From: Candidatus Parcubacteria bacterium
GTDB lineage: Bacteria; Patescibacteriota; Saccharimonadia; UBA4664; JBIOIQ01
NCBI GenBank assembly: GCA_963718875.1
Contig: OY970378.1
Span: 1,075,691 to 1,139,690 of the forward strand
Direction of reading: 5' to 3'
Length of the DNA: 64,000 bases
Position 1 is the first letter of the stretch; every line of letters starts with the position of its first letter. The translations under genes were made by a program, and so were the position numbers. The notes beneath the pieces were generated by a model, which saw nothing but the letters and a program-made list of their open reading frames with translations, had not been told where the DNA came from and made no database searches. Shown here piece after piece: positions 1 to 12,571 of this stretch.

Positions 1-166
1 TGGAACAATATTCCAAAGCCTAAGCCCCGAAGATTATGTTGTCATACCGGAAATGCTTGCTAGCTAAGCCGCAAACCCTGTATATTCAACCGATACATAT
101 CCATTATACCTTCTATATATTTAGAAGTACGTAAGGTATGACCATTACGCTTATGCTAAAATAGAA

Positions 167-712
167 TTGGTGAAAGATATGCCTCTCAATCGACTTCAAG
201 AAACCATTTTGTATACCCTTGCTAAGGCTCACGACAAGGGTATTAATAACTTGTCTAAATTTCAGCTAATGAAGCTTGTTTATATGATTGAGATCAATTC
301 ACAGAGGTTCTTAGGTGAGTCTTTTATTCATAATGTGAAGTTCTACCGAGAAAAGAATGGCCCTATCTCATATGATATCTATAAGGCTGTAGACGAATTA
401 ACCAAAACCGGGTTTATTGAGGCGTGGGCTGAAGATAATACAGAGTATGGCCACCCTAGGCATTGCCACCGTATTAAGAAGCAGCCGGCCCAAGTAAGCT
501 TTGGAAAGTCGGAAAAAGTATTTTTGAATAGCATTCTAGAAGACTACTTGCCTCTAACCATAGCTAAGCTCAAAGCAGAGGCTTATAAAACCGAGCCAAT
601 GCAGAAAGCCCAGCAAGAAGAAAAAAGGCAGGGACACCCTCTCAACGGCCGTCCTTTAGACTTAGACACAGTTGCCTTGGACGAAGACATTCTTTCTGCA
701 ATCCTGGGGTAG
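167..712 (+). CDS. Panacea-domain (DUF4065/SocA-like) protein, putative antitoxin; ATG at 179 may be the true start (167 is TTG)
   Basis: ORF translation shows the DUF4065-like core (LMKLVYMIEI...GP) and an acidic C-terminus. Sits 4 nt upstream of a small MazF-like ORF. Confidence 0.5.
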   Translation: MVKDMPLNRLQETILYTLAKAHDKGINNLSKFQLMKLVYMIEINSQRFLGESFIHNVKFYREKNGPISYDIYKAVDELTKTGFIEAWAEDNTEYGHPRHCHRIKKQPAQVSFGKSEKVFLNSILEDYLPLTIAKLKAEAYKTEPMQKAQQEEKRQGHPLNGRPLDLDTVALDEDILSAILG

Positions 713-715
713 TCT

Positions 716-1132
716 ATGAGCTACGATCCAGGGGATATCCTATATTTTAAGGAGTATACGTTCAACGATACGGGCGAGGTCGCCCGTCATTTCGGCTTAG
801 TTATACTCCCGACAGAACTAACGGACTTTGAAAGTCAGATCTACTGCTGCGTAATAACCTCCAACGCTCCACGAAACACTTATGCCGTTCACCTTTTAGA
901 TCACAACGACTACCCCTGCTTCAGTAAGCCCACGTACGCAAGGGTACATTTGCAAGATTACATACCAATTAGTGGCGTCGACACCGGCCGGAAACAGCCG
1001 GTAGGCAAACTAGATCTGGTCGATAGAAAGAAGGTTTTTAAGATCTTGCGGAACGTTCTGTTTTCGCAAACTAATCCCGTAGATAAATACTTGCGGGCAA
1101 CCATTATTAAAGAGTGGAAGAAAACTCTTTAG
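716..1132 (+). CDS. MazF/PemK-like putative toxin paired with the upstream Panacea protein
   Basis: N-terminal GDILYF...TGEV...LVILP...CCVITSNAPR pattern resembles the CcdB/MazF-fold toxins. Tight 4-nt spacing to 167..712. Confidence 0.4.
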   Translation: MSYDPGDILYFKEYTFNDTGEVARHFGLVILPTELTDFESQIYCCVITSNAPRNTYAVHLLDHNDYPCFSKPTYARVHLQDYIPISGVDTGRKQPVGKLDLVDRKKVFKILRNVLFSQTNPVDKYLRATIIKEWKKTL

Positions 1133-1138
1133 GCTACC

Positions 1139-1889
1139 TCATTCGGCTGTAGACCTAGCCGCATAGTAAGCACAGTAGTCGCAGTTCTTACCCGGCTTGG
1201 GTATGGTTCTCTTGCAAAGCACTTTGTAGGCGTCCATAACGGCCTTTTCTACCCAACCGTCATTACCTTCGTATGGGATCAGCTTAATATCAAAGTCTAG
1301 CCTACCGTCGAATGCGTCGTTATCCCGGCGACCATTGCAGTACACAAAGTAGCCGGTGTTTGATACCGGTAGGCCATTTTTACGAAATAGCCATTGATAG
1401 ATTTCCATTTGTCGTTTATAGCCGTCTTGCCAATCGGCGTCGAGCGATACCTCGCCCTTTTTGCTAGTGGCCTTATAGTCGACGATAACTACCTCGCAGG
1501 TCTGGGGATCTTCCCAAACGTCGTCTACGCCGCCGGTAAGGACTAAATTGGTATCCGGTATAGCGTATGTAATGCCACGGTGGAGGCTATCTCGCCACTC
1601 CTCAATGTATCTATGGGAAAGGTACTAAATCTAGCCCGTAGGCTTTAACGAGCGGGTGGACGGTCTTAGCCTGCCGGTGGATATCGAACTCCTTTTTGAG
1701 TAACTCGTCGACTGCACTATTGAGGTTAAACGGATACCCAGGTGGCCGGCCCACGCCTAGTTTACGATCCAAGTAGAAGCACCGAGGGCATTCGATAAAT
1801 AGATCGAGCTTACTTCGGCTTAGGCGAAAGGGCTTATCGCTAGTGTGCTCGTATAAGTTTCTCTTTCTAGTTTTATAGTATTCCGACAT
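1139..1889 (-). pseudogene. Cas4/RecB-like PD-(D/E)XK nuclease with Cys cluster, apparent frameshift around 1611-1627
   Basis: N-terminal piece (1611..1889) has a single Cys (CPRCFYL). My manual translation shows the downstream frame continues from ~1625 through IVDYKAT (D-x-K motif) and QMEIYQW (QxxxY) to a C-terminal CDYCAYY Cys triad. The two pieces lie in different frames and overlap by ~15 nt. Confidence 0.55.
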
Positions 1890-1918
1890 TAATCCCTATT
1901 TTCATTTTATTAGTCTAG

Positions 1919-3802
1919 CTAATCGACTTTATAAAACACCTTGCCGTGGGGCAACTTGATATTAGGTATCCAGAAAGGTTGCCCTCCCCATTTGTTCTCT
2001 CGTTTTCCGTTTAGCCTATACATAGTCAAAACTGGAAGATTTTGTATCGAATTACCTAATTGTCTGTCGTCCGGCGAGAGTAAGGTGCCAGTTCCTTGGC
2101 TGATATCTCGATTACGTCGTACTATAAGCTTTGCGAGATTCAATGAGCCCTTTTCGTTTTTCAAAGCGTCTAATGCAGCAATAAGTGAAGCAGTGTCCCA
2201 GTTATTTGGTGTATCAGATCTTAAGCTCGATAGTATTTTTTCCAGATCCGGCAAAGTTATGTCGTAGACAGGGTGCTGATCGTCGTAAGCACTCATTACG
2301 TCGTCGAGAGTACCTGAATTTGACTGGTCTGGATCGGGCGGAAAATAGTTTACTCCTCCAACCAAAATGTTAAGCAAACCCTGGTCGACAACGTTCTTTC
2401 TCGTCGGTTTGAACTTAGACGAAGTCATTATTTGAATTTCGTCAATGTTCGACTCCTGAACCTGCTTGAGTAGCACCTCGTTTGAGTTATTAATCTCTGC
2501 AAATACATTAAACAATGGCATAGGCATAAAAACCCGCATTAGCATAGGATCTCTGTCATATCCAAACATACGACTGTGCTGCCAAAACGTATCAGCTTGT
2601 GGCCTTTTCGACGACCGGCAATAGTACACAGTCTGAAGCCCTTTAAAAGTTACCCCTCTTCCGAGGCTGTTTCCACCAACTACTATATTCATTCCCTCGT
2701 CAAACGATACCCTGGGATCGCTTTCTGGGCCAGAATTCATGGTGAAGACATTTATTTCTGGTGCTGTTTTGATAAACTCTATCAACTCCTTGAAATGCCT
2801 AATATCTGGTTTAGACTTCTTCAAATCTGACCAGGCAGTTTCCAGCCTATCTTGGGTTGCTTTATCGTCAATAGTCCGTAGGACGTGTTGGAGATAATGC
2901 TTTGCTTTCTCTGCAATTTTCTCGTGATCTTCTATCCTAACGCTTGGGTGGATCAAGAAGTTGCAAACCTTAGAGTCTTTATTAACAAACTGGTGAGCTG
3001 CGGTGATTAGATAGGTATCAGTTGCAAGCTTTAGACCCTCGGCAATTTCGTCGGTTTTAAGGAGCACACTTAGCTCGTCGTCCTCTGTAAACCTGTTAGT
3101 GAAAGGTGCTGGCTTACTATAAAAAAACGAGCCACCAAGGTAACCTCTGCCCGGCGGGAAGTAATGAACAAATGCTGGTTTCCAATTTGACGATTTTGCT
3201 TGAAGTAATAAGGATTGGGGCGTAGCAGTTACTTGAAGATAAAAGCTGCTTGTTGATAGGTTTCTAATGTTTTCCAAGTGCCGGTTAATTGCACTTTGCT
3301 CTTCACGGTTTACTTCAGTATTTAAACTGGCTGCGTCAGCCTCGTCGTCTACTATGAAAATCGGCCTGCCTTTACTAAATCCCGTTGAGGCTAAAATATC
3401 TTTCCACTTTTTCAAAACAGTCGTATTTTTCTTTAAGATAATTAAAGCGGGCTTACGCATATTAAGAGCCTTGAACCTCAATTCGTCGCCCTCGTCGCAT
3501 ATATTAAAAGTATCTAAATTTAGTAAAGCACGCTCATAAGTCTGCTTTTGGAGGGCATTGATCGGGCTGGTTAATACGAAAAATATTTCGAAGCCAGCGT
3601 CTGCTGCTGCGGCCACTACTCCGAACATTTGACCTGTCTTACCGCTTTGGACTTCTCCGAGTAGTAGCCCGGTTATGTGCTCCTTAAAGTTAAACGCCTC
3701 TATATGTTCCGGCACAATCTCTTGGAGGGTTTCTTTAACAGATCCGACGGCATTAGGCGAGGACTCGGCGAGCCTAGCTAGATAGTTCTGTAAATGGCTC
3801 AC
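1919..3802 (-). CDS. DEAD-like P-loop ATPase with Z1 domain (H.CglI / N.NgoAVII-like R-M accessory ATPase)
   Basis: Walker A GEVQSGKTGQM and Walker B/DEAD IFIVDDEADAAS. The size and downstream region fit a Z1-domain protein. In an operon with a PLD nuclease and a C5-MTase. Confidence 0.55.
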   Translation of the reverse strand: MSHLQNYLARLAESSPNAVGSVKETLQEIVPEHIEAFNFKEHITGLLLGEVQSGKTGQMFGVVAAAADAGFEIFFVLTSPINALQKQTYERALLNLDTFNICDEGDELRFKALNMRKPALIILKKNTTVLKKWKDILASTGFSKGRPIFIVDDEADAASLNTEVNREEQSAINRHLENIRNLSTSSFYLQVTATPQSLLLQAKSSNWKPAFVHYFPPGRGYLGGSFFYSKPAPFTNRFTEDDELSVLLKTDEIAEGLKLATDTYLITAAHQFVNKDSKVCNFLIHPSVRIEDHEKIAEKAKHYLQHVLRTIDDKATQDRLETAWSDLKKSKPDIRHFKELIEFIKTAPEINVFTMNSGPESDPRVSFDEGMNIVVGGNSLGRGVTFKGLQTVYYCRSSKRPQADTFWQHSRMFGYDRDPMLMRVFMPMPLFNVFAEINNSNEVLLKQVQESNIDEIQIMTSSKFKPTRKNVVDQGLLNILVGGVNYFPPDPDQSNSGTLDDVMSAYDDQHPVYDITLPDLEKILSSLRSDTPNNWDTASLIAALDALKNEKGSLNLAKLIVRRNRDISQGTGTLLSPDDRQLGNSIQNLPVLTMYRLNGKRENKWGGQPFWIPNIKLPHGKVFYKVD

Positions 3803-4860
3803 GACGCCTCAACCCCAAAGTTCATAAACCATTTGTTGCTGCCCTCAATCCTCGATAATGAAATTGTGTTTCTTCCATATTTGCTTAAAACCTCGTCGGT
3901 TACGGGTGTCCCCGGTTCTAATGCACCGTTCACTTCTAATCTGCCCTTTATCCATTTTCCTAATATTTTAAGATCGCCGTCTGAACGCAGGTTTTTACTG
4001 TAGTCCCCACTTACCTTACAATCAAACTCCCAGCCGTCGTCAGTAACCACTTGAAATACTCCACCTTCACCACCTGAATCTGCTTTTGGATAATACGGCA
4101 GAGAGGTTATTTCTTTAGGTACAATCAATTCGACTTCGTACCAAGGGCGTGGCATAACAAAACCCTGTTGATTCCGGCGACCTTCTCCAAAGAAAGCATT
4201 CAAGTTGCTCTTTGGGGCGTCGTTGGCCTTCAAGGGTATTTCTATCTTATCTGACGACAATTGGTTTATGAGTGCCGATACCTCACTACTAGTTACTTTC
4301 GTAACTCCGTATTGGTCGTTCAAAAGAGGATTGGTAGACACCACTAGCGGGATATCTACTTCCCCTATCGGCTCGCAAGCTTTTTCTAGAAGTTCACCAA
4401 TGAATGTTTCTAGCCTGATAGCTTCGCTATGGTTCTCTATTAGGTAATCGGCCTCATAAAGTCTTTGCCCAAATACAATATTGGAAAGGTTTGAAGAACC
4501 GACAATAGACCCTATAATGCTACCCTTAGACTTAAAGCTGGCTAGCTTGCCGTGGAACGGAAATGTAACAGATACAAATACTCCACCCAGGTTGTTGAGG
4601 GTGAGGTAATCATTTAATGACTCCAAGGCCACTTTTTGAGAGTTGGTTAGTCCCTCGAAGAAGTGCATACCAATGCAAAGTGTCAATTTTGGGCCGTGGT
4701 TCTGTTCAATAATATTTCTTAGGTCTACCGCCGAGTCGGCAGAAATATACCCAGACGCAATAGACAGCTCGTCAGAGGATTTTATGAGTTTATGGAATAT
4801 TTCAGTATAAGAGTCGAGTTCGGTTTTGACAGGCGGGAAGTTTGAAAATAGTAGTGCCAT
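3799..4860 (-). CDS. PLD-family restriction endonuclease (NgoFVII/NgoAVII/CglI R-like) with C-terminal B3-like DNA-binding region
   Basis: HxK...GSxN phospholipase-D nuclease motif (FHGKLASFKSKGSIIGSIVGSSNLS). 4-nt overlap with the upstream MTase stop and downstream ATPase start. Confidence 0.55.
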   Translation of the reverse strand: MALLFSNFPPVKTELDSYTEIFHKLIKSSDELSIASGYISADSAVDLRNIIEQNHGPKLTLCIGMHFFEGLTNSQKVALESLNDYLTLNNLGGVFVSVTFPFHGKLASFKSKGSIIGSIVGSSNLSNIVFGQRLYEADYLIENHSEAIRLETFIGELLEKACEPIGEVDIPLVVSTNPLLNDQYGVTKVTSSEVSALINQLSSDKIEIPLKANDAPKSNLNAFFGEGRRNQQGFVMPRPWYEVELIVPKEITSLPYYPKADSGGEGGVFQVVTDDGWEFDCKVSGDYSKNLRSDGDLKILGKWIKGRLEVNGALEPGTPVTDEVLSKYGRNTISLSRIEGSNKWFMNFGVEAS

Positions 4861-4863
4861 TTG

Positions 4864-5958
4864 CTAGTCCGCCGATATTGCCAGTTGATTGAGTCCCACC
4901 CCGTTTAACGAAACGCTATATTCACTTACTTTAGCTGGTTCAGTTAACTTACTAGCTTCAAACACTGGCATTAGGTAGCCTGCGATAGTCTTTGCCGCTA
5001 CGGGGGGGACTGAATTGCCGATTTGCCTACGAACTTCCGTGATTGAGCCTTCGAAGATAAAGTCGTCAGGATAACCGAAAAGTCTAGCACGTTCCCTGTT
5101 AGTCAAAGGCCGTGGTTCTTCGTAATGATACCCCCAGGTGCCACCTCCGCCTCCTGCGATTATTGTGGTAGAGGGCTTGTTTTTGTCTAACCGACGATAT
5201 ACGTGGCTGATCATACCCTTAACATAGTAAGGACTATCTTTAGGCAAAGAGGAAAAATTGCCACCGGCGGGGATCAGTTTTAGCATTTCTCTGGTCTTGT
5301 CCTTGATATTCTGGTGCTCGTTGTTGTGGGGTACTTTTTCAACCCCCTCTAATGCCTCTCCAGCCGTTACGAAATTTCCGGCTGTGTGAGTGGGATCGGG
5401 TTTCTCGAAATTGAAATCAATGTCATTCCTGATACCAACTATCAATACACGTTCTCTCAATTGTGGTGCTCCATAGTGGGCGAAATTGTAGAGATCGGCT
5501 CGTATTTTGTATCCAAGTCGTGCGAAGTCCTCAATAATCTGTCGTATTGCCTTACCGTCATTCGCCGTTAGGAGGCCTTTAACGTTTTCAGCCACAAAAA
5601 CTTTTGGCTTCTTAGTTTCAACCGCACGTACAAAATGCTTGTACAGGTTTCCTCGGTCTGTTTCTAAACCGCCCCGTTTCCAAATCATTGAAAAATCCTG
5701 ACAGGGGAAACCACCGGTGATAATATCTGCGTCCGGTACTTTATTGAAATCGATATCCGTAATGCTAGCGTGGGTGATATGGGGGCCGAAATTACGTTCG
5801 TAGGTCTTGCAGGACGAGGCTTCAAAATCGTTAGCCCATACAACTTCAAAACCCGCTAGCTTGAAGCCAAGATCGAGCCCACCACAACCGGAAAATAGAG
5901 ATAAAAGCTTAGGACGTTTGGAAATTTTAGTATTCTTATTTATCATTTTCATACTCAT
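4864..5958 (-). CDS. DNA (cytosine-5)-methyltransferase
   Basis: Motif I LFSGCGGLDLGF, motif IV GGFPCQDFS and the ENV motif. Confidence 0.85.
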   Translation of the reverse strand: MSMKMINKNTKISKRPKLLSLFSGCGGLDLGFKLAGFEVVWANDFEASSCKTYERNFGPHITHASITDIDFNKVPDADIITGGFPCQDFSMIWKRGGLETDRGNLYKHFVRAVETKKPKVFVAENVKGLLTANDGKAIRQIIEDFARLGYKIRADLYNFAHYGAPQLRERVLIVGIRNDIDFNFEKPDPTHTAGNFVTAGEALEGVEKVPHNNEHQNIKDKTREMLKLIPAGGNFSSLPKDSPYYVKGMISHVYRRLDKNKPSTTIIAGGGGGTWGYHYEEPRPLTNRERARLFGYPDDFIFEGSITEVRRQIGNSVPPVAAKTIAGYLMPVFEASKLTEPAKVSEYSVSLNGVGLNQLAISAD

Positions 5959-6153
5959 ATACCCCTTTCGTATGATTATAGACTAAAGCGTTATAAATTG
6001 CCGCAACATTTTTCTCTGGAACGAAACTAATCTATTCGGCTTTTGTTCGGTATCTTTACTCTACGAGAATCGTCGAGAAAACACAACACTTAGTACTTAA
6101 TTTCTTAACACCTCAACGGGAGTGGAGGGTATGCTTTTTTATCGAAAAATACC

Positions 6154-6462
6154 CTACTTTCGGGCAAATTCTGGGTCGTGCCGTTCCAAGTACCAGCGAG
6201 CTGCGACTGCGTCCCCATTTCTTATAGCGTCTACAATTATCAGCCGTGCCTTTTCTTTAGTAGCACTCTCTGCACCAACGAATATATCGGTAAATTCACC
6301 CTCTCTACGGATATGGTCGTAATACGCCCCGTAGGACACGCCAGCGTAGCGACAGGCCGCCCGAACGCTCAAACCCCTATGTAGAGCCCCGACGATCTTA
6401 CTTACCGCCTCTGCGTCGATCACTGACGGTCTGCCGACATTTGTTTTGAGAGTTTGAGGCAT
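6154..6462 (-). CDS. HTH protein resembling phage terminase small subunit (gp3-like DNA-packaging protein)
   Basis: GRPSVID...ARWYLERHDPEF pattern. Start chosen at internal ATG 6462 with AAGGAG 8 nt upstream; the ORF-track start at 6567 is unsupported. Confidence 0.5.
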   Translation of the reverse strand: MPQTLKTNVGRPSVIDAEAVSKIVGALHRGLSVRAACRYAGVSYGAYYDHIRREGEFTDIFVGAESATKEKARLIIVDAIRNGDAVAARWYLERHDPEFARK

Positions 6463-6529
6463 ATAGTTCTCCTTATCGGTTCGCCTCCGAGTATCTCCAT
6501 TATACCCGTTCAGATATAATTGAAGCAGT

Positions 6530-7204
6530 ATGAAAATGACGACCGAAGAAAAGCACGAATATAACACTTGGCTGGTTTTATCCGCTTTGAGAGAAAAGCA
6601 ATTAACCGTAGGTAATACCTTTAGCTTCCCAACCGATTACGTTGACGACCTAAATCCCGAACTGACACACGGGATAATTCGTCTACTACACGAGCAGGGC
6701 TATCTGCTCCGGCTGGATTTCCCGTCTGAACTAAACATACCGATCAACGGCGATAGGATTATGGTGCCTAGGATAGACTGGCCCGATAATTTGGCACGCC
6801 GTATACAGGTGGAATTGATACCGAAAAAATTTAACCGTATTTATCAAACACTCACAAAAAAGTTTGCTATCAAATCGGCGGTAGAACCACGTTCTGGAAC
6901 CCCTATGCTTTCGTTCGCACAGGTCGACGGAATAGCCTCATTCAAAACAGGGTGGTACACATTTAAGCCTGGGACAAAGGCCCATACGATATTGGAGTTC
7001 TTGCAGTCCAATAAGGGCTGGCCACAAGGTACTAACGACATTATCGAGGGCTGTAATAAGAAAATAGCTACAGGTAACTATAAATTTCGTGCTGAAAAGG
7101 ACATACGGGATACCCTAAACAATATTAGAAAGAACTTAAAGGTGAACAAGGGTGAGTTTTTTCCAATTATCAAACAGGGCGACAAGTGGGTTTGGAAGGA
7201 GTAA
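6530..7204 (+). CDS. hypothetical protein (mobile-element cargo)
   Basis: 224-aa ORF divergent from the terminase-small-like gene. No recognisable motif. Confidence 0.4.
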   Translation: MKMTTEEKHEYNTWLVLSALREKQLTVGNTFSFPTDYVDDLNPELTHGIIRLLHEQGYLLRLDFPSELNIPINGDRIMVPRIDWPDNLARRIQVELIPKKFNRIYQTLTKKFAIKSAVEPRSGTPMLSFAQVDGIASFKTGWYTFKPGTKAHTILEFLQSNKGWPQGTNDIIEGCNKKIATGNYKFRAEKDIRDTLNNIRKNLKVNKGEFFPIIKQGDKWVWKE

Positions 7205-7317
7205 ACCCTACAACCTAAGCTAGCAAGGTTCGTTCACTTTTTTCACCTAGTAACTCAATTACTCCTGGTATCAGAAAATGACTAGTACAAGTCATTTTTT
7301 AATTTCGCAGGATTACT

Positions 7318-7560
7318 ATGAGCCAGGAAGAAAGCACAATCAAAACCGCCGATCTCGCCCTGGCTTCCGTTTTGGTTGAGAAAAATTATGAACTTCTTGA
7401 ACTCGAACGCAACTATGGCAATCGAGTTTCTTTTGTTTTTGAACGTACTCCTGAAATCGAGGGGGTCTTGGCGGACTATTGGGGAAACCGAATAACTGTA
7501 AACCCCCGTATCTACTTCGACGCAATCAAGCACCTTAAGACTCGGATTTATGGCGGCTGA
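7318..7560 (+). CDS. small DUF5659-like protein
   Basis: 80-aa ORF, ADLALASVLVEKNYELLELERN...FVFE pattern typical of a small phage/CPR domain family. Confidence 0.35.
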   Translation: MSQEESTIKTADLALASVLVEKNYELLELERNYGNRVSFVFERTPEIEGVLADYWGNRITVNPRIYFDAIKHLKTRIYGG

Positions 7561-7795
7561 TATGCAATTAACCGACTCTGACATTTTGGAGTTTAAAGAG
7601 CTTGCTAAGAAGCACCTCGGCGTAGATCTAACGTGGGAGGCCGCACAAGATCAAGCCATAAAGCTTGTCCGGCTAATGCAAATTGTTCACCGACCATTGA
7701 GCGTCGAGGATTATGAAGCTATTCGCCTAAAAGACGGCTTTAGCCGCAATAAAAATGAGAACGAATATGAGCCAAGCGGATCAAAAGAGATTTAA
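7550..7795 (+). CDS. hypothetical small acidic protein
   Basis: ORF overlapping its neighbours by a few codons, operon-like arrangement. Confidence 0.3.
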   Translation: MAADMQLTDSDILEFKELAKKHLGVDLTWEAAQDQAIKLVRLMQIVHRPLSVEDYEAIRLKDGFSRNKNENEYEPSGSKEI

Positions 7796-8276
7796 TAAGT
7801 ACTTCCGGCAAAAGGGCATTCTCTACCAGCCGGGCTACGCCATTATTTTTGGCAACCTAAATGCCGGTATCTTGCTAAGCCAGCTCCTATATTGGCACGG
7901 AAAGGGTAAAGACAGGGAGGGCTGGATTTACAAAACTGCCGAGGGTTGGAGGAAAGAAACTGGGCTTACCCGGTATGAGCTAGAAACTGCAAGACGTACT
8001 CTAATTAAGCACAGCATTCTCGACTACAAGCGATCGGGAAACCCCTGCACAAGCCACTATCGACTTAACCTTCTAAAGCTAGAAGAGGCACTTCCTAGTT
8101 TGCTGGAAACCAACAATCTGGTTTATCTGAAACCACCCGACAGTATTTCGGCAAAACCGCAAACTCTTATTTCAGAGAGTACCCAAAAGACTACGACAAA
8201 AAGTACTCCGCCGATTAATAAATCCAATTATAAAAAACAACGGACTGCATTACTTGATATGAAAGGTTTTCCCTAG
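7767..8276 (+). CDS. phage-type replication initiator / DnaD-like winged-HTH protein
   Basis: GWRKETGLTRYELETARRTLIKHSIL resembles replisome-organiser N-terminal wHTH. Start at second ATG. Confidence 0.35.
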   Translation: MSQADQKRFNKYFRQKGILYQPGYAIIFGNLNAGILLSQLLYWHGKGKDREGWIYKTAEGWRKETGLTRYELETARRTLIKHSILDYKRSGNPCTSHYRLNLLKLEEALPSLLETNNLVYLKPPDSISAKPQTLISESTQKTTTKSTPPINKSNYKKQRTALLDMKGFP

Positions 8277-8334
8277 CTAGAGATCACTATTCAAAGCACT
8301 AACAATATTGTGTAATATATAAGGAGTAATGACT

Positions 8335-9954
8335 ATGCAAAGCCAAAATCTAAAATATTTCCTCTACGCTCGTAAGTCCTCCGAGGACGAGGACAGACAA
8401 ATTCAGTCAATCGACGACCAAGTTAATTGGTTAATACAAAAAGCCAATCAAACAGGAGTTGTTCTAAAGAAAAATCAGATCTTTACAGAGGCTAAATCGG
8501 CTAAGAAGCCGAATAATCGGCCCGTGTTCGCCGAAATGCTAGCCCGGATCGAAAAGGGCGAAGCAAATGCCCTACTAGTTTGGGACATTTCTCGCTTATC
8601 GAGAAACCCGATCGATAGTGCGGCGATACAATGGCTGCTCCAAGAAGGTAAGCTACGGTTAATCCATACGCACACACGAGAGTACCGCCCAGAGGATAAT
8701 ACGCTTCTATATAGCGTCGAGAGCGGTATGGCCAATCAGTACATTATCGAGTTACGTGCGAATACACAGCGAGGGATCAATAGTAAGCTTGAAAAGGGCT
8801 GGAAGCCTGGTTTAGCTCCCGTTGGCTACATAAACAACCCCGATCCCGACGAACGCAAGGGTGAAAAAACAATAATCCCCGATCCGGAGCGGTTCGATAT
8901 AGTGCGGAAAGCCTGGGATTTAATGCTTACCGGCAATTACAATCCCCGCCAAATACACCAAATAGCTACAGAGGAATGGCATTTAACTACCAAGGAGCGA
9001 AAAACGAAGCGTGGCAAGGTAGCGATTAGCCGCACGATCTCTCACAACGGCACATACCGTCTACTAACTAATATATTCTACGCAAAGGTAATTGATTATG
9101 GTGGCAAAATATATGAGGGGAGCCATAAGCCAATGATCACAATGGCGGAGTTTGACCGGGTACAAATGTTACTCGGAGCTAAGGGTCGCCCTCGCCCCCA
9201 GTCCCGTGAGCATTCTTATACGGGCAGCATTACCTGCGGCGAATGCTCGGCTCAAGTAACGGCCGAAACCAAGACCAAGTTCGTGAAAAAGACCGGTCAG
9301 CTCAAGGATTACGTCTATTACCGCTGTACCCACCGTAAGACCGGCGTGCCGTGCAAACAGCGGCCGATCCGCCTGGAAGACCTAGAGCCACAAATGGACG
9401 CACAACTACGGCAATTTACGATCCTACCGGTATTTCGGGACTGGGCATTAGAAAAGCTGAACCGGTCTAATGACCAAGAGATCGTAGATCGTACAAAAGT
9501 CCAAGAGTCGCTTACTAAGGCTCTGGACGACAATCAACAGCAGCTAGATAACCTGACTAAAATGCGTTACAGGGATATGATCGACGACGACGAGTTCAAA
9601 AAGGAAAAGAAGGCCCTCCAAACGGAGCTAGCTAGGCTTCAACAAGAGCGGGACGGCAATGAGGGGCGAGCTAGGAACTGGCTTAAGCTCACGGAGGATA
9701 CCTTCAAGTTCGCTTGCTACGCCCAACGATCGTTTATGTTTGGCGACGTTAGAACTAAGCGGGAAATCTTCGCCGCTCTCGGTAAGGGTGCGACGCTAAA
9801 AGACGGCGTGCTAACAATCACTCCTCATAAATGGTTTCAACCGATCGTCGAAAATTACGCCGAATTAGAAGCTGCGTATGAGGAGGTTAGAACTAAAAAA
9901 ACAGCCAATCTCAATCGAGAAATGGCTGTTTTGATAAATAATTGGGGCGAGTGA
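8335..9954 (+). CDS. large serine recombinase (integrase)
   Basis: N-terminal resolvase catalytic domain (YARKSSEDEDRQ, catalytic Ser), recombinase domain, Cys-rich zinc ribbon (CGEC...C) and C-terminal coiled coil. AAGGAG RBS. 3' end overlaps tRNA-His. Confidence 0.85.
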   Translation: MQSQNLKYFLYARKSSEDEDRQIQSIDDQVNWLIQKANQTGVVLKKNQIFTEAKSAKKPNNRPVFAEMLARIEKGEANALLVWDISRLSRNPIDSAAIQWLLQEGKLRLIHTHTREYRPEDNTLLYSVESGMANQYIIELRANTQRGINSKLEKGWKPGLAPVGYINNPDPDERKGEKTIIPDPERFDIVRKAWDLMLTGNYNPRQIHQIATEEWHLTTKERKTKRGKVAISRTISHNGTYRLLTNIFYAKVIDYGGKIYEGSHKPMITMAEFDRVQMLLGAKGRPRPQSREHSYTGSITCGECSAQVTAETKTKFVKKTGQLKDYVYYRCTHRKTGVPCKQRPIRLEDLEPQMDAQLRQFTILPVFRDWALEKLNRSNDQEIVDRTKVQESLTKALDDNQQQLDNLTKMRYRDMIDDDEFKKEKKALQTELARLQQERDGNEGRARNWLKLTEDTFKFACYAQRSFMFGDVRTKREIFAALGKGATLKDGVLTITPHKWFQPIVENYAELEAAYEEVRTKKTANLNREMAVLINNWGE

Positions 9955-10020
9955 TGGGGCTCGAACCCACGACATTCTGCTCCACAAGCAGACGCTCTAA
10001 CCAACTGAGCTACACCCGCC
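9943..10020 (-). tRNA. tRNA-His (GTG) with genomically encoded G-1 and CCA
   Basis: Manual fold: 7-bp acceptor stem with G-1:C73, D-arm TAGCTCAGTTGG, anticodon loop ttGTGga, T-arm GTGGGTTCGAGCCCCAT, CCA at 9943-9945. Confidence 0.9.
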
Positions 10021-10023
10021 TCG

Positions 10024-10287
10024 TTAACTAACGGCCTTCATAATACCGTCGCTTATTATTTTCTCAATATAATCCTTTCTCTTCCAGCGTTTAATTCTTC
10101 TTTCAGCATCTCTCGCTTCAGATAATGAGCCAAATTCTTGATGAAACACAAGCTTTAGCTCTCCCATTCGACTAGTACTTGGGGTACTTCCAGCAGAATG
10201 CTGGGAAATACGCCGATTAAGATTTGTGGTACTCCCGACGTAATACTTACCTGAACTTGAATATAAGATATAGAGATAGCTTTTCAT
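10024..10287 (-). CDS. GIY-YIG nuclease family protein (small stand-alone)
   Basis: YLYILYSSSGKYYVGSTTNLNRRISQH is the GIY-YIG motif. Confidence 0.75.
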   Translation of the reverse strand: MKSYLYILYSSSGKYYVGSTTNLNRRISQHSAGSTPSTSRMGELKLVFHQEFGSLSEARDAERRIKRWKRKDYIEKIISDGIMKAVS

Positions 10288-10784
10288 ATATTCCTAACCA
10301 AAGCCGACGCAAAGGTCGGCTCCCCGACAACTATAGCTCGTCGGGGCTGAGCTACAACCGCCATATAAGTTTCATTTGTATAAGTTTCGAATTACATTTG
10401 TACTTGACAGCATGAAAATTGAAAATTGATTAAATGATACTTGCATTCTGGTGGAGGCAATCCCGCAAGCGGGACGGCCCCCGAACTAATTTCAATTCGT
10501 TGTTTCAAATTCAAATCAGATCGGGTATATTTTAGAGCTCTTTCAAAATCCCTCCGTCCTGCAAACCCGTTTGTAGGGCAATCTACTGATTTTTTACTTC
10601 TCAAGGTAGCACTATGGCTATCTCTCAAACTAAGAAAATCACTATATTACTCCTAAAACGGGTTTTCGGATTTCGAATGGGTTTTGAAAGGGCTTTATTA
10701 CATTTTACCTGTAACCTATGACATTTGACACTTCTTCTAATGGCTAAAAGCCATGAGCAATCCGTCAGCTGACGGAGAGTCGAA

Positions 10785-10861
10785 TGGTGCCCCCGGTTGG
10801 ATTCGAACCAACGACCTTAGGCTTAGAAGTCCTCTGCTCTATCCAGCTGAGCTACAGGGGC
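10785..10861 (-). tRNA. tRNA-Arg (TCT), anticodon stem appears weakly paired
   Basis: Acceptor GCCCCTG/CGGGGGC, D-arm GCTCAGCTGGATAGAGC, T-arm GTTGGTTCGAATCCAAC, CCA encoded. Anticodon loop cTTCTaa gives TCT. Only 3 central Watson-Crick pairs in the anticodon stem by hand folding. Confidence 0.75.
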
Positions 10862-10908
10862 GCATTGTCAAGTATACTTTAATATTAGGCTTTATTAATG
10901 GATGTTGG

Positions 10909-11340
10909 TTATTGGGTGTTTTTGAGCTTGACTTGGTAAACAAACTTATCTACGTCATCTACGGGGATATTATTGACACCCGACAGTCTGCCAAAAGCTA
11001 GGTTACTCCACGATGCTTGTCCAATTTGGTAAATTTCCATCTCTTTCTTTTTGGCAAAAGCATAGCCATTCTCAAGTTGAACCCCTGCAGAGACTCGTTC
11101 CTCCAAAAGAATGATTAATTTATCGGTATTATCAATTTCGTCAAAATCTTTTTGGAGTTCTGCTTCGGGCAGCTTAACCCCTCCCAAGCTCCATCGCGCA
11201 TGCTCCAAAGCGCAAAACACAACGTGATCGGCTTTGCGTAAGGAAACCAGCAAATCTTCTATTGCAGCTCGGTAATCTGCAGTCACCCGACCATCGGGAT
11301 CTACTTTAGACGAGAACGGGATTGAAAGAAATATACGCAT
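10909..11340 (-). CDS. nucleoside 2-deoxyribosyltransferase-like protein
   Basis: MRIFLSIPFSS... start and overall pattern resemble the Nuc_deoxyrib_tr family. Start moved to internal ATG 11340 because the longer ORF would run toward tRNA-Gly. Confidence 0.45.
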   Translation of the reverse strand: MRIFLSIPFSSKVDPDGRVTADYRAAIEDLLVSLRKADHVVFCALEHARWSLGGVKLPEAELQKDFDEIDNTDKLIILLEERVSAGVQLENGYAFAKKKEMEIYQIGQASWSNLAFGRLSGVNNIPVDDVDKFVYQVKLKNTQ

Positions 11341-11568
11341 AATACCTGACTCTTTCTCTGCCAAAGTTTGTGTCCATTTTGTTGATATGGGCACAAACTT
11401 TGGAGCGGGTGGCGGGGATGTGGCTTGTGCCACCTTCCTGCGGTGCTCGGAAAGACCAAAAGCCAACTTTAATCTTTCCTGCGCTCCTCGTACACCGAAC
11501 CTAAAGGTTCGCTCACCACCACCCATTGTACCAAGAAAATAGCCCCAAACAAGCTGAGACTATTTTCT

Positions 11569-11643
11569 TGGAGCGGGTGGCGGGGATCGAACCCGCGTCT
11601 CCAGCTTGGAAGGCTAGCATAATAGCCACTATACGACACCCGC
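11569..11643 (-). tRNA. tRNA-Gly (TCC)
   Basis: Acceptor GCGGGTG/CACCCGC, anticodon loop cTTCCaa, T-arm GCGGGTTCGATCCCCGC, CCA encoded. Confidence 0.9.
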
Positions 11644-11803
11644 ATGCTTACTGATTATCCGAAGTATTGTAGCAGAGAAAGGCTTTAGCGCAAAGGCTTA
11701 CTTAGGGCCAATAAGTCTCGGGTCATAATTAATTTGACTTCCCTGTGCACAAGTGCTATAATTGTGTGACGATTTTTGGCAGTTCTTGTTTCGGTCAACT
11801 CCT

Positions 11804-12571
11804 ATGAAAGGCCACGCCATGCGTCGAGCACTTGTCTTTGTTGTCGTAATCGGGCTACTGACCGTAGCCTGCAGAAGCGACAAGGAAGCCCCTTCAACAT
11901 CTTTCCAGCAAGTAGCAGCCGCCGCCGAAGCGGCGGCTCCGGTCAGCACAACCGTCGTCACAACCACCGCCCCACCAGTGGTATCAACTACCATGGTTGC
12001 GCCAACGGCTACCACAGCCCGGCCGACAACCACGATGATGGCTACCACCACAACGGTTCGTCCATCACCTACCACCACCGTGCCAGTCGCCACAACAGCG
12101 GCGCCCGACATGTTCAGCTCCGAACGAGAGTTCGACAAGGTGCTGATTGGCGGGTCGGCGGTTCGCATTGGCCAGGACTTTGCGTCGATGCAAGGCCGGT
12201 TCAGCGATCTGGGATTTGGCCGTTGGCAGTCCCAGACTGCCTTCACTACCTTCGTGTCGGTGAGCGGCGGTAAGATCGTGGCCATCGTCAGCATCCAAGA
12301 CCATGGCCGCCACGCAGCAACCGTGACGGTGCCGGATTTCTACTACGGCATGCAGCTCGCTGAACTACGCATTTGGTACCCCGAGATGCAGTTCGACAAG
12401 TTCGATACCCAGCCTGCGCTGCGAAAGAACCTGCGTAACGGTAGTTTCTACGCCGTAGGAGGAGGTTGCACCACAGGAGGGGTCGACGTGGTGGCAATAG
12501 CCCTAACGGGTTTTCAATCCACTGCGGAACAGATGGTTCATCTCGGGGACTGCAACCCCGACAAGGACTGA
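11804..12571 (+). CDS. Thr/Pro/Ala-rich secreted lipoprotein, compositionally foreign (high GC)
   Basis: Signal peptide with lipobox-like LTVAC, long T/P/A-rich linker, C-terminal globular part. A sampled 60-mer is ~65% GC versus ~47% background. Confidence 0.55.
   Translation: MKGHAMRRALVFVVVIGLLTVACRSDKEAPSTSFQQVAAAAEAAAPVSTTVVTTTAPPVVSTTMVAPTATTARPTTTMMATTTTVRPSPTTTVPVATTAAPDMFSSEREFDKVLIGGSAVRIGQDFASMQGRFSDLGFGRWQSQTAFTTFVSVSGGKIVAIVSIQDHGRHAATVTVPDFYYGMQLAELRIWYPEMQFDKFDTQPALRKNLRNGSFYAVGGGCTTGGVDVVAIALTGFQSTAEQMVHLGDCNPDKD

Follow-up and report, generated by a model that had tools for sequence, protein, structure and literature searches.

A predicted CglI/NgoAVII-family ATP-dependent restriction-modification operon on a prophage-like island of a probable Saccharimonadales genome

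In a 64,000-nucleotide stretch of contig OY970378.1 (the whole stretch analysed, hereafter the window), positions 1919-5958 are exactly filled by three full-length open reading frames (ORFs) on the minus strand in the order M-R-H, with zero internal stops or frameshifts in the ORF list. The question that this locus raises is whether its methyltransferase (M), nuclease (R) and helicase-like (H, also called N) genes form one ATP-dependent restriction-modification (R-M) system, and which DNA sequence such a system would read. An earlier sequence-only reading had proposed a three-gene ATP-dependent Type II system of the CglI/NgoAVII kind, and the domains, the gene order and the homology to the NgoAVII locus all agree with this proposal. 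We consider it highly probable that the operon is an intact CglI/NgoAVII-family R-M system carried on a prophage-like integrative island. The label 'Type II' stands only in part: this is an R-M system, but the papers that characterised the family assign it a position between Type I and Type II (PMC4267653, PMC5861437).

The M-R-H operon and its three products

The genes, junctions and flanks of the operon, with lengths in nucleotides (nt) and amino acids (aa), are as follows.

5958..4864, minus strand: M, C5-cytosine DNA methyltransferase, 364 aa
4861..4863, minus strand: M/R spacer (caa), 3 nt, separating the TAG stop of M (4866-4864) from the ATG start of R (4860), read from the sequence
4860..3799, minus strand: R, site-specific nuclease subunit with phospholipase D (PLD) and B3-like domains, 353 aa
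3799..3802, minus strand: R/H overlap GTGA, 4 nt, the H start GTG lying on the R stop TGA, read from the sequence
3802..1919, minus strand: H, DEAD-Z1 helicase-like motor subunit, 627 aa, GTG start
5959..6153, minus strand: intergenic region 5' of M, 195 nt, presumed from its position to hold the operon promoter
6166..6150: terminator-like hairpin across the end of the upstream helix-turn-helix gene (stop codon 6156-6154)

Both junctions had been described as coupled by 4-nt overlaps, which is right for R/H (GTGA, 3802-3799) but not for M/R, where a 3-nt gap read from the sequence separates two genes that share one reading frame. The R/H overlap suggests translational coupling; a Shine-Dalgarno-like GAGG lies 6 nt upstream of the H GTG, and this start is supported by homologues that align from H residue 1-3. 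At the other junction (4858-4866, minus strand) M and R are parted by TAG-CAA alone, so that read-through of one stop would give an M-R fusion, a potential that is probably a coincidence.

As the main reference, the NgoAVII locus was located by tblastn of H against a plasmid collection, which led to a 2.17-Mb Neisseria gonorrhoeae record; in the region fetched, M lies at 1806..2930, R at 2927..3964 (345 aa, the published length) and N at 3965..5854. The PLSDB records NZ_CP119142.1 and NZ_CP119140.1, both 2.17-Mb N. gonorrhoeae sequences filed as plasmids and evidently chromosomes, carry this locus with no listed annotation. The conserved elements of the three window proteins are listed below.

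M: motifs I FSGCGG (residue 22), IV PCQ (residues 85-87, nt 5698-5706), VI ENV (124), VIII QLRER (166), IX TNRE (286) and X GNSVP (314)
R, residues 21-162, nt 4375-4800, minus strand: N-terminal PLD nuclease domain with H103-G-K105 (nt 4546-4554), GSSN (121-124) and E136
R, residues 199-338, nt 3847-4266, minus strand: C-terminal B3-like DNA-binding domain
H, DEAD N-core: Walker A variant GEVQSGKT (residues 49-56, nt 3635-3658), DDEAD (152-156, nt 3335-3349) and TATP (192-195)
H, residues 257-456, nt 2435-3034: Z1 C-core with H/H motif H285...H293, motif V GGNSLGRG (376-383) and motif VI WQHSR (407-411)
H, residues 466-627, nt 1922-2407: C-terminal DNA-binding domain

M was recognised as a C5-methyltransferase from the letters alone, and the profile searches bear this out (Pfam DNA_methylase, 3.9e-81; TIGR00675 dcm, 9.6e-75; PADLOC MTase_II, 7.6e-117). 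Aligned with M.NgoAVII of the gonococcal locus, M shows 61% identity over 341 aa; its variable target-recognition region, which separates motifs VIII and IX (residues 176-285), reaches the same 61%, like the catalytic parts. Since this identity includes the target-recognition region, GCSGC specificity is likely for M; M.CglI and M.NgoAVII, at 62% identity, both methylate GCSGC (PMC4267653).

R carries the HxK..GSxN signature of a PLD nuclease that had been noticed, as HGK at residues 103-105 and GSSN at 121-124, and it matches Pfam RE_NgoFVII (PLD; 3.8e-30), RE_NgoFVII_C (B3-like; 2.9e-36) and PADLOC REase_II (1.4e-94). The protein is 43% identical to R.NgoAVII of the gonococcal locus; its residues 3-348 align with the crystallised R.NgoAVII (PDB 4RCT, E 5.7e-76), and its C-terminal half aligns with the DNA-bound B3 domain structure (PDB 4RD5, 1.8e-47). 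The active-site residues H103, K105, N124 and E136 correspond to NgoAVII H104, K106, N124 and E137, which are conserved in 78-80 of 80 family members. In the DNA-binding half, the lysines that hold the clamp phosphate (K211 and K282) correspond to NgoAVII K212 and K275, the reader of the central G through bidentate hydrogen bonds (R292) to R285, and the acidic N-arm residues (E242 and E244) to E241 and E243. The text of the structure paper gives D124, D241 and D243 for residues that in the NgoAVII sequence itself are N124, E241 and E243.

H fits the description of a DEAD/Walker ATPase with a Z1-like region, having GEVQSGKT and DDEAD, a Pfam Z1 match (PF10593, 2.6e-29) and, in the ATPase part at the N-terminus, a weak ResIII-like signal. 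Its residues 1-627 cover positions 1-620 of the 621 in PADLOC Helicase_II ('Type II helicase domain protein', 2.2e-215), and it is 39% identical over 627 aa to N.NgoAVII of the gonococcal locus, with the helicase motifs at equivalent positions. All of the H.CglI motifs that have been described and mutated in the literature are present, namely the Q-variant Walker A, DDEAD, TATP, the H/H motif with its 8-residue spacing, the motif V arginine and a QxxR motif VI, and the motif residues do not vary among 18 aligned homologues at 51-75% identity. Residues 466-627 match the crystallised C-domain of H.CglI (PDB 6F1S, 5.7e-25). In an AlphaFold model built on the 18-sequence alignment (mean predicted local distance difference test score, pLDDT, 78), the best Foldseek match in the PDB is again 6F1S (template modelling, TM, score 0.80 on the target; root-mean-square deviation 2.9 A; 37% identity). 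The next matches, over ~480-600 alignment columns, are superfamily 2 (SF2) helicases and translocases with two RecA folds (RECQL5, Hef, Hel308, Chd1 and EcoR124I HsdR), in agreement with the published single motor, in which DEAD and Z1 together make up one SF2-like unit (PMC5861437).

The checks proposed with the first reading thus came out in its favour: hidden Markov model matches for PLD/NgoFVII, the B3-like fold and Z1 all exceed the curated Pfam cut-offs, and comparison with REBASE, by way of the REBASE-derived PADLOC models, matched M, R and H essentially end to end. The M-R-H(N) architecture, set from the outset against a classical type II pair, also holds, the order being equal to that of the NgoAVII locus and H matching Helicase_II from end to end.

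Recognition site, proposed mechanism and alternatives

In the literature the site of the restriction enzyme is the asymmetric GCCGC and that of the methylase is GCSGC. We propose GCCGC for R and GCSGC for M as the most likely sites here, because R keeps the DNA-reading residues of the NgoAVII-like group and its changes at the arm tip fall at freely varying positions. This grouping comes from an alignment of 112 R proteins, 80 of them from loci with a colinear NgoAVII-like M and 31 others. K212, S217, N220, R237, E241, E243, K282, N283 and R285 are kept in 79-80 of the 80 proteins with a colinear M, and R of the window has all nine; the 31 other proteins show R285S, E243Q and N283Q together with a shortened N-arm tip, changes that make this subgroup a candidate for another recognition sequence.

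Drawing on the biochemistry of CglI and NgoAVII (PMC4267653, PMC5737866, PMC5861437, PMC4267654), the system could work as follows. M, acting alone, would methylate cytosine-5 in GCSGC and so protect the host DNA. R would dimerise through its PLD domains, forming a single shared HxK active site, and its B3-like domains would read unmethylated 5'-GCCGC-3'; two H subunits would bind to give an R2H2 complex, with the R/H GTGA overlap serving to balance the amounts of R and H. On a target, each DEAD-Z1 motor would hydrolyse ATP and translocate on double-stranded DNA, preferentially downstream of the site; in CglI the hydrolysis runs at ~170 ATP per second per monomer (PMC4267653, PMC5737866, PMC5861437). 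Collision with a second site-held complex would then lead to strand cleavage 6-7 nt downstream of the site, and a double-strand break would need two complexes.

The alternative that deserves most weight keeps the family and the mechanism and changes the recognition sequence, to GCWGC as in BceSIV or to a new site. We regard it as unlikely. The family does hold at least one further specificity (BceSIV, GCWGC; PMC4267653), R is only 43% identical to R.NgoAVII, four charged residues at the N-arm tip are changed, and the structure paper cautions that sequence is a poor guide to the base contacts that B3 domains make. Set against this, M is 61% identical to M.NgoAVII in the target-recognition region too, as close as M.CglI, which shares the specificity; the arms of R with which DNA is read are 75% (N-arm) and 71% (C-arm) identical to those of NgoAVII; and R285 and E241/E243 (NgoAVII numbering), invariant in the colinear group, are present in R, whereas R285S, E243Q and N283Q are found in the subgroup whose M is different. 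Several observations nevertheless weigh against the identification of the operon as an active NgoAVII-like system with these sites. The catalytic, motor and DNA-reading functions of M, R and H are predicted from conserved named residues, and the activity itself is deduced. The N-arm tip differs from that of NgoAVII at 4 of 13 positions (D229N, K230Q, R231Q and K235M), all of which vary freely inside the NgoAVII-like group, and the base contacts mapped from R.NgoAVII are those of the residues named in the main text, out of nine that contact bases. GCCGC is not avoided in the window (149 observed, 127 +/- 12 expected from shuffles), and GCWGC shows no departure either (128 against 133 +/- 11), a count that says nothing on specificity. 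The M/R junction does not overlap, and a promoter and terminator scan of 900-6700 gave nothing convincing for the operon and no convincing match to the sigma-70 consensus, which may not fit this lineage.

The absence of a promoter from that scan also speaks for a decayed or silent cassette, in which the genes look intact and restriction is lost, for instance an island remnant with only M working; decay is visible next door, where the PD-(D/E)XK nuclease gene directly downstream (1139-1889) is frameshifted. But none of the three proteins is truncated relative to the family profiles, their catalytic and motor motifs are all intact and the three genes contain zero internal stops or frameshifts, so that we judge such a loss improbable. 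An ordinary two-gene Type II pair standing beside an unrelated Z1 defence ATPase such as that of MZA (MzaC) would account for the partial matches of H to MzaC models (NCBIfam, 78.7 bits; PADLOC, 1.6e-15), which are due to the shared Z1 domain. The match to MzaC NF041933, however, covers the Z1 region only and its 78.7 bits stand against a cut-off of 1500, whereas H fits the R-M Helicase_II model from end to end and has the CglI-specific fold of 6F1S as its C-domain; in addition, R and H overlap by 4 nt, their adjacency is retained in essentially all loci examined, and R.CglI and R.NgoAVII by themselves gave no DNA cleavage (PMC4267653, introduction, from unpublished data). This reading is very improbable to us, and the MZA/MzaC and Gabija identities were rejected for H, as the scores are partial and sub-threshold. 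Least probable of all is a modification-dependent Type IV nuclease directed against methylated DNA: SauUSI, too, joins a PLD nuclease to an SF2 motor, and the papers on it cite CglI and NgoAVII for comparison, but here a cognate C5-methyltransferase lies in the operon and is conserved with R and H, the DNA reader is a B3-like domain of the NgoAVII type, which binds unmethylated GCCGC, and nuclease (R) and motor (H) are separate polypeptides.

Family distribution and the mobile island

The CglI/NgoAVII-type cassette is widespread. Among 8000 candidates scored from the protein collection, 6256 are relatives of H at E <= 1e-10 (the best 75% identical), and two exact peptide patterns, run against a single genome for each GTDB species, picked out 262 (the best 63%). 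The closest of the GTDB relatives (58-63%) come mostly from metagenome-assembled genomes (MAGs) of Candidatus Saccharimonadales/Saccharibacteria, and those at 43-51% from Omnitrophota, Legionella, Treponema, Bacteroidota, Clostridia, Akkermansia, an archaeon and others. A complete colinear M-R-H is found in 80 of the 118 loci fetched, across many phyla, and 6 loci are cut by contig ends. H relatives also occur on 37 IMG/VR viral contigs, where 29 loci were not classed as colinear; most of these consist of R-H and an opposite-strand methylase ~40% identical to M of the window. In this IMG/VR subgroup (L087-L116; for example L087, 6835-11633), R (~29% identical) and H (~41%) are adjacent and the methylase usually lies downstream of H. 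Three loci from Scalindua and Paludibacteraceae MAGs (L046, L061 and L080) have an H match that starts only at residue 41-44 and a partial M match, and tblastn detected no R in them; they may be degraded cassettes or a fused or variant architecture.

The following features surround the operon in the window.

167..712, plus strand: SocA/Panacea-domain antitoxin-like gene (Pfam 1.5e-06)
716..1132, plus strand: 138-aa ORF with no annotation, 3 nt after the SocA-like gene
1139-1889, minus strand: Cas4/RecB-like PD-(D/E)XK nuclease gene, 29 nt after H, with one frameshift near 1610
6154..6567, minus strand: small-terminase-like helix-turn-helix gene (1.1e-12)
6530..7204: 224-aa ORF
7318..7560: DUF5659 gene
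between the DUF5659 and replication-initiator genes: 81-aa ORF
7755..8276: O-like/DnaD-like replication-initiator gene (7.1e-27)
8329..9954, plus strand: large serine integrase (Pfam Resolvase and Zn_ribbon_recom; phrog_95, 2e-62)
9943..10019, minus strand: tRNA-His from the tRNA scan, its 3' end overlapped by the last integrase codons

The integrase and the phage-like genes at 6154-8276 mark a mobile, prophage-like island that carries M-R-H. At another Saccharimonadales locus (L003), homologues of the integrase, orf173, orf81 and orf80 (33-41% identity) stand in the same arrangement beside that locus's own M-R-H, so that the cassette is cargo of a recurring type of element. A search for attachment (att) sites found no direct repeat of the tRNA-His 3' end in 1-10100, and the island may extend leftward past the start of the window.

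Downstream of H, the nuclease pseudogene retains CPRC in its N-terminal part (1889..1611) and D...DYK, QxxxY and CxxC in its C-terminal part, which continues to 1139 in another frame; when conceptually repaired, the 250-aa protein matches Pfam PDDEXK_1 (2.9e-13). The pair at 167-1132, at the left edge of the window, resembles a toxin-antitoxin of the PanA type, which would make it a further addiction or defence module of the island. As components of the system we considered and rejected the SocA-like gene, the 138-aa ORF and the Cas4-like fragments, as no homologues of them stand beside H in 80 genome loci.

Beyond the integrase, a tRNA trio (His, Arg and Gly) is clustered at 9943-11643, and an 87-aa stand-alone GIY-YIG gene (10024-10287, minus strand; Pfam 8.1e-16) lies between tRNA-His and tRNA-Arg. 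A peak of GC content at 11698-12571 (0.58-0.60, against ~0.45 around it) coincides with a 269-aa ORF (11762..12571, plus strand) of low complexity, rich in Thr, Val, Ala and Pro. The long mirror ORFs over it, found on the complementary strand and in a further frame, are probably composition artefacts. The rest of the window is ordinary chromosome (RNase Y, PilB/PilC-like type IV pilus genes, an M23 peptidase with a ricin-type lectin domain, glycogen synthase and glycogen phosphorylase, and carB), a gene content compatible with Saccharibacteria.

Significance and comparison with known systems

The identification is correct but ordinary, of a known and well-characterised family, and its value lies mostly in annotation, as biochemical and structural work on the family goes back to 2014 and dedicated Pfam and PADLOC models exist for it. 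What this work documents is an intact CglI-type ATP-dependent system on a mobile island, probably in a Saccharimonadales genome of the Candidate Phyla Radiation (CPR). Such a barrier would matter for the genetic manipulation of episymbionts, and DNA premethylated at GCSGC should escape it. The family alignment, moreover, splits an NgoAVII-like group from the R285S/E243Q/N283Q subgroup, which has a different and oppositely oriented methylase. A more speculative idea, to which we give little credence, is that the Saccharimonadales branch (R 43% and H 39% identical to NgoAVII; on CPR serine-integrase elements) has an altered site or cleavage geometry, or that the Cas4-like nuclease was once a fourth, lineage-specific component.

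Among the characterised systems, NgoAVII (of the NgoFVII type; N. gonorrhoeae FA1090; PDB 4RCT and 4RD5) agrees with the window operon in its three genes, their order and their orientation, and the window proteins share with it, at the identities given above, the PLD active-site residues, the clamp lysines, the R285/E241/E243 reader and the unusual helicase motifs; M and R of the window group with NgoAVII and not with the subgroup lacking R285. The two differ in their junctions, as in NgoAVII M and R overlap by 4 nt and R and N abut, whereas the window has a 3-nt gap at M/R and the 4-nt overlap at R/H. They differ also in R, which carries here a 6-residue insertion in the B3 domain (GGEGGV) besides the four N-arm tip substitutions, and in their hosts, a proteobacterium for NgoAVII and probably a CPR bacterium for the window operon.

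CglI of Corynebacterium glutamicum ATCC 13032 (NCgl1703-1705) has the same architecture with proteins of nearly the same size (R 358 and H 632 aa, against 353 and 627 aa here); the C-domain of H was compared with it directly, through 6F1S, and the other likeness is by published motifs, all of which H of the window contains. CglI resides in prophage CGP3 (PMC4267653), as the window operon resides in a prophage-like island, and stress sensitivity is a CglI phenotype. BceSIV/Bce14579I of Bacillus cereus, likened by description, is the same kind of nuclease/ATPase pair dependent on nucleoside triphosphates (PMC4267653); for BceSIV, a GCWGC site and cuts on both sides of it are reported. Finally, the two-domain plan of R, with a PLD dimer, a single HxK active site and a B3-like reader, is shared with the Type IIS enzyme BfiI (PMC4267654), but BfiI cuts alone, without ATP or a motor, whereas R of the window is accompanied by a conserved H that appears to be translationally coupled to it.

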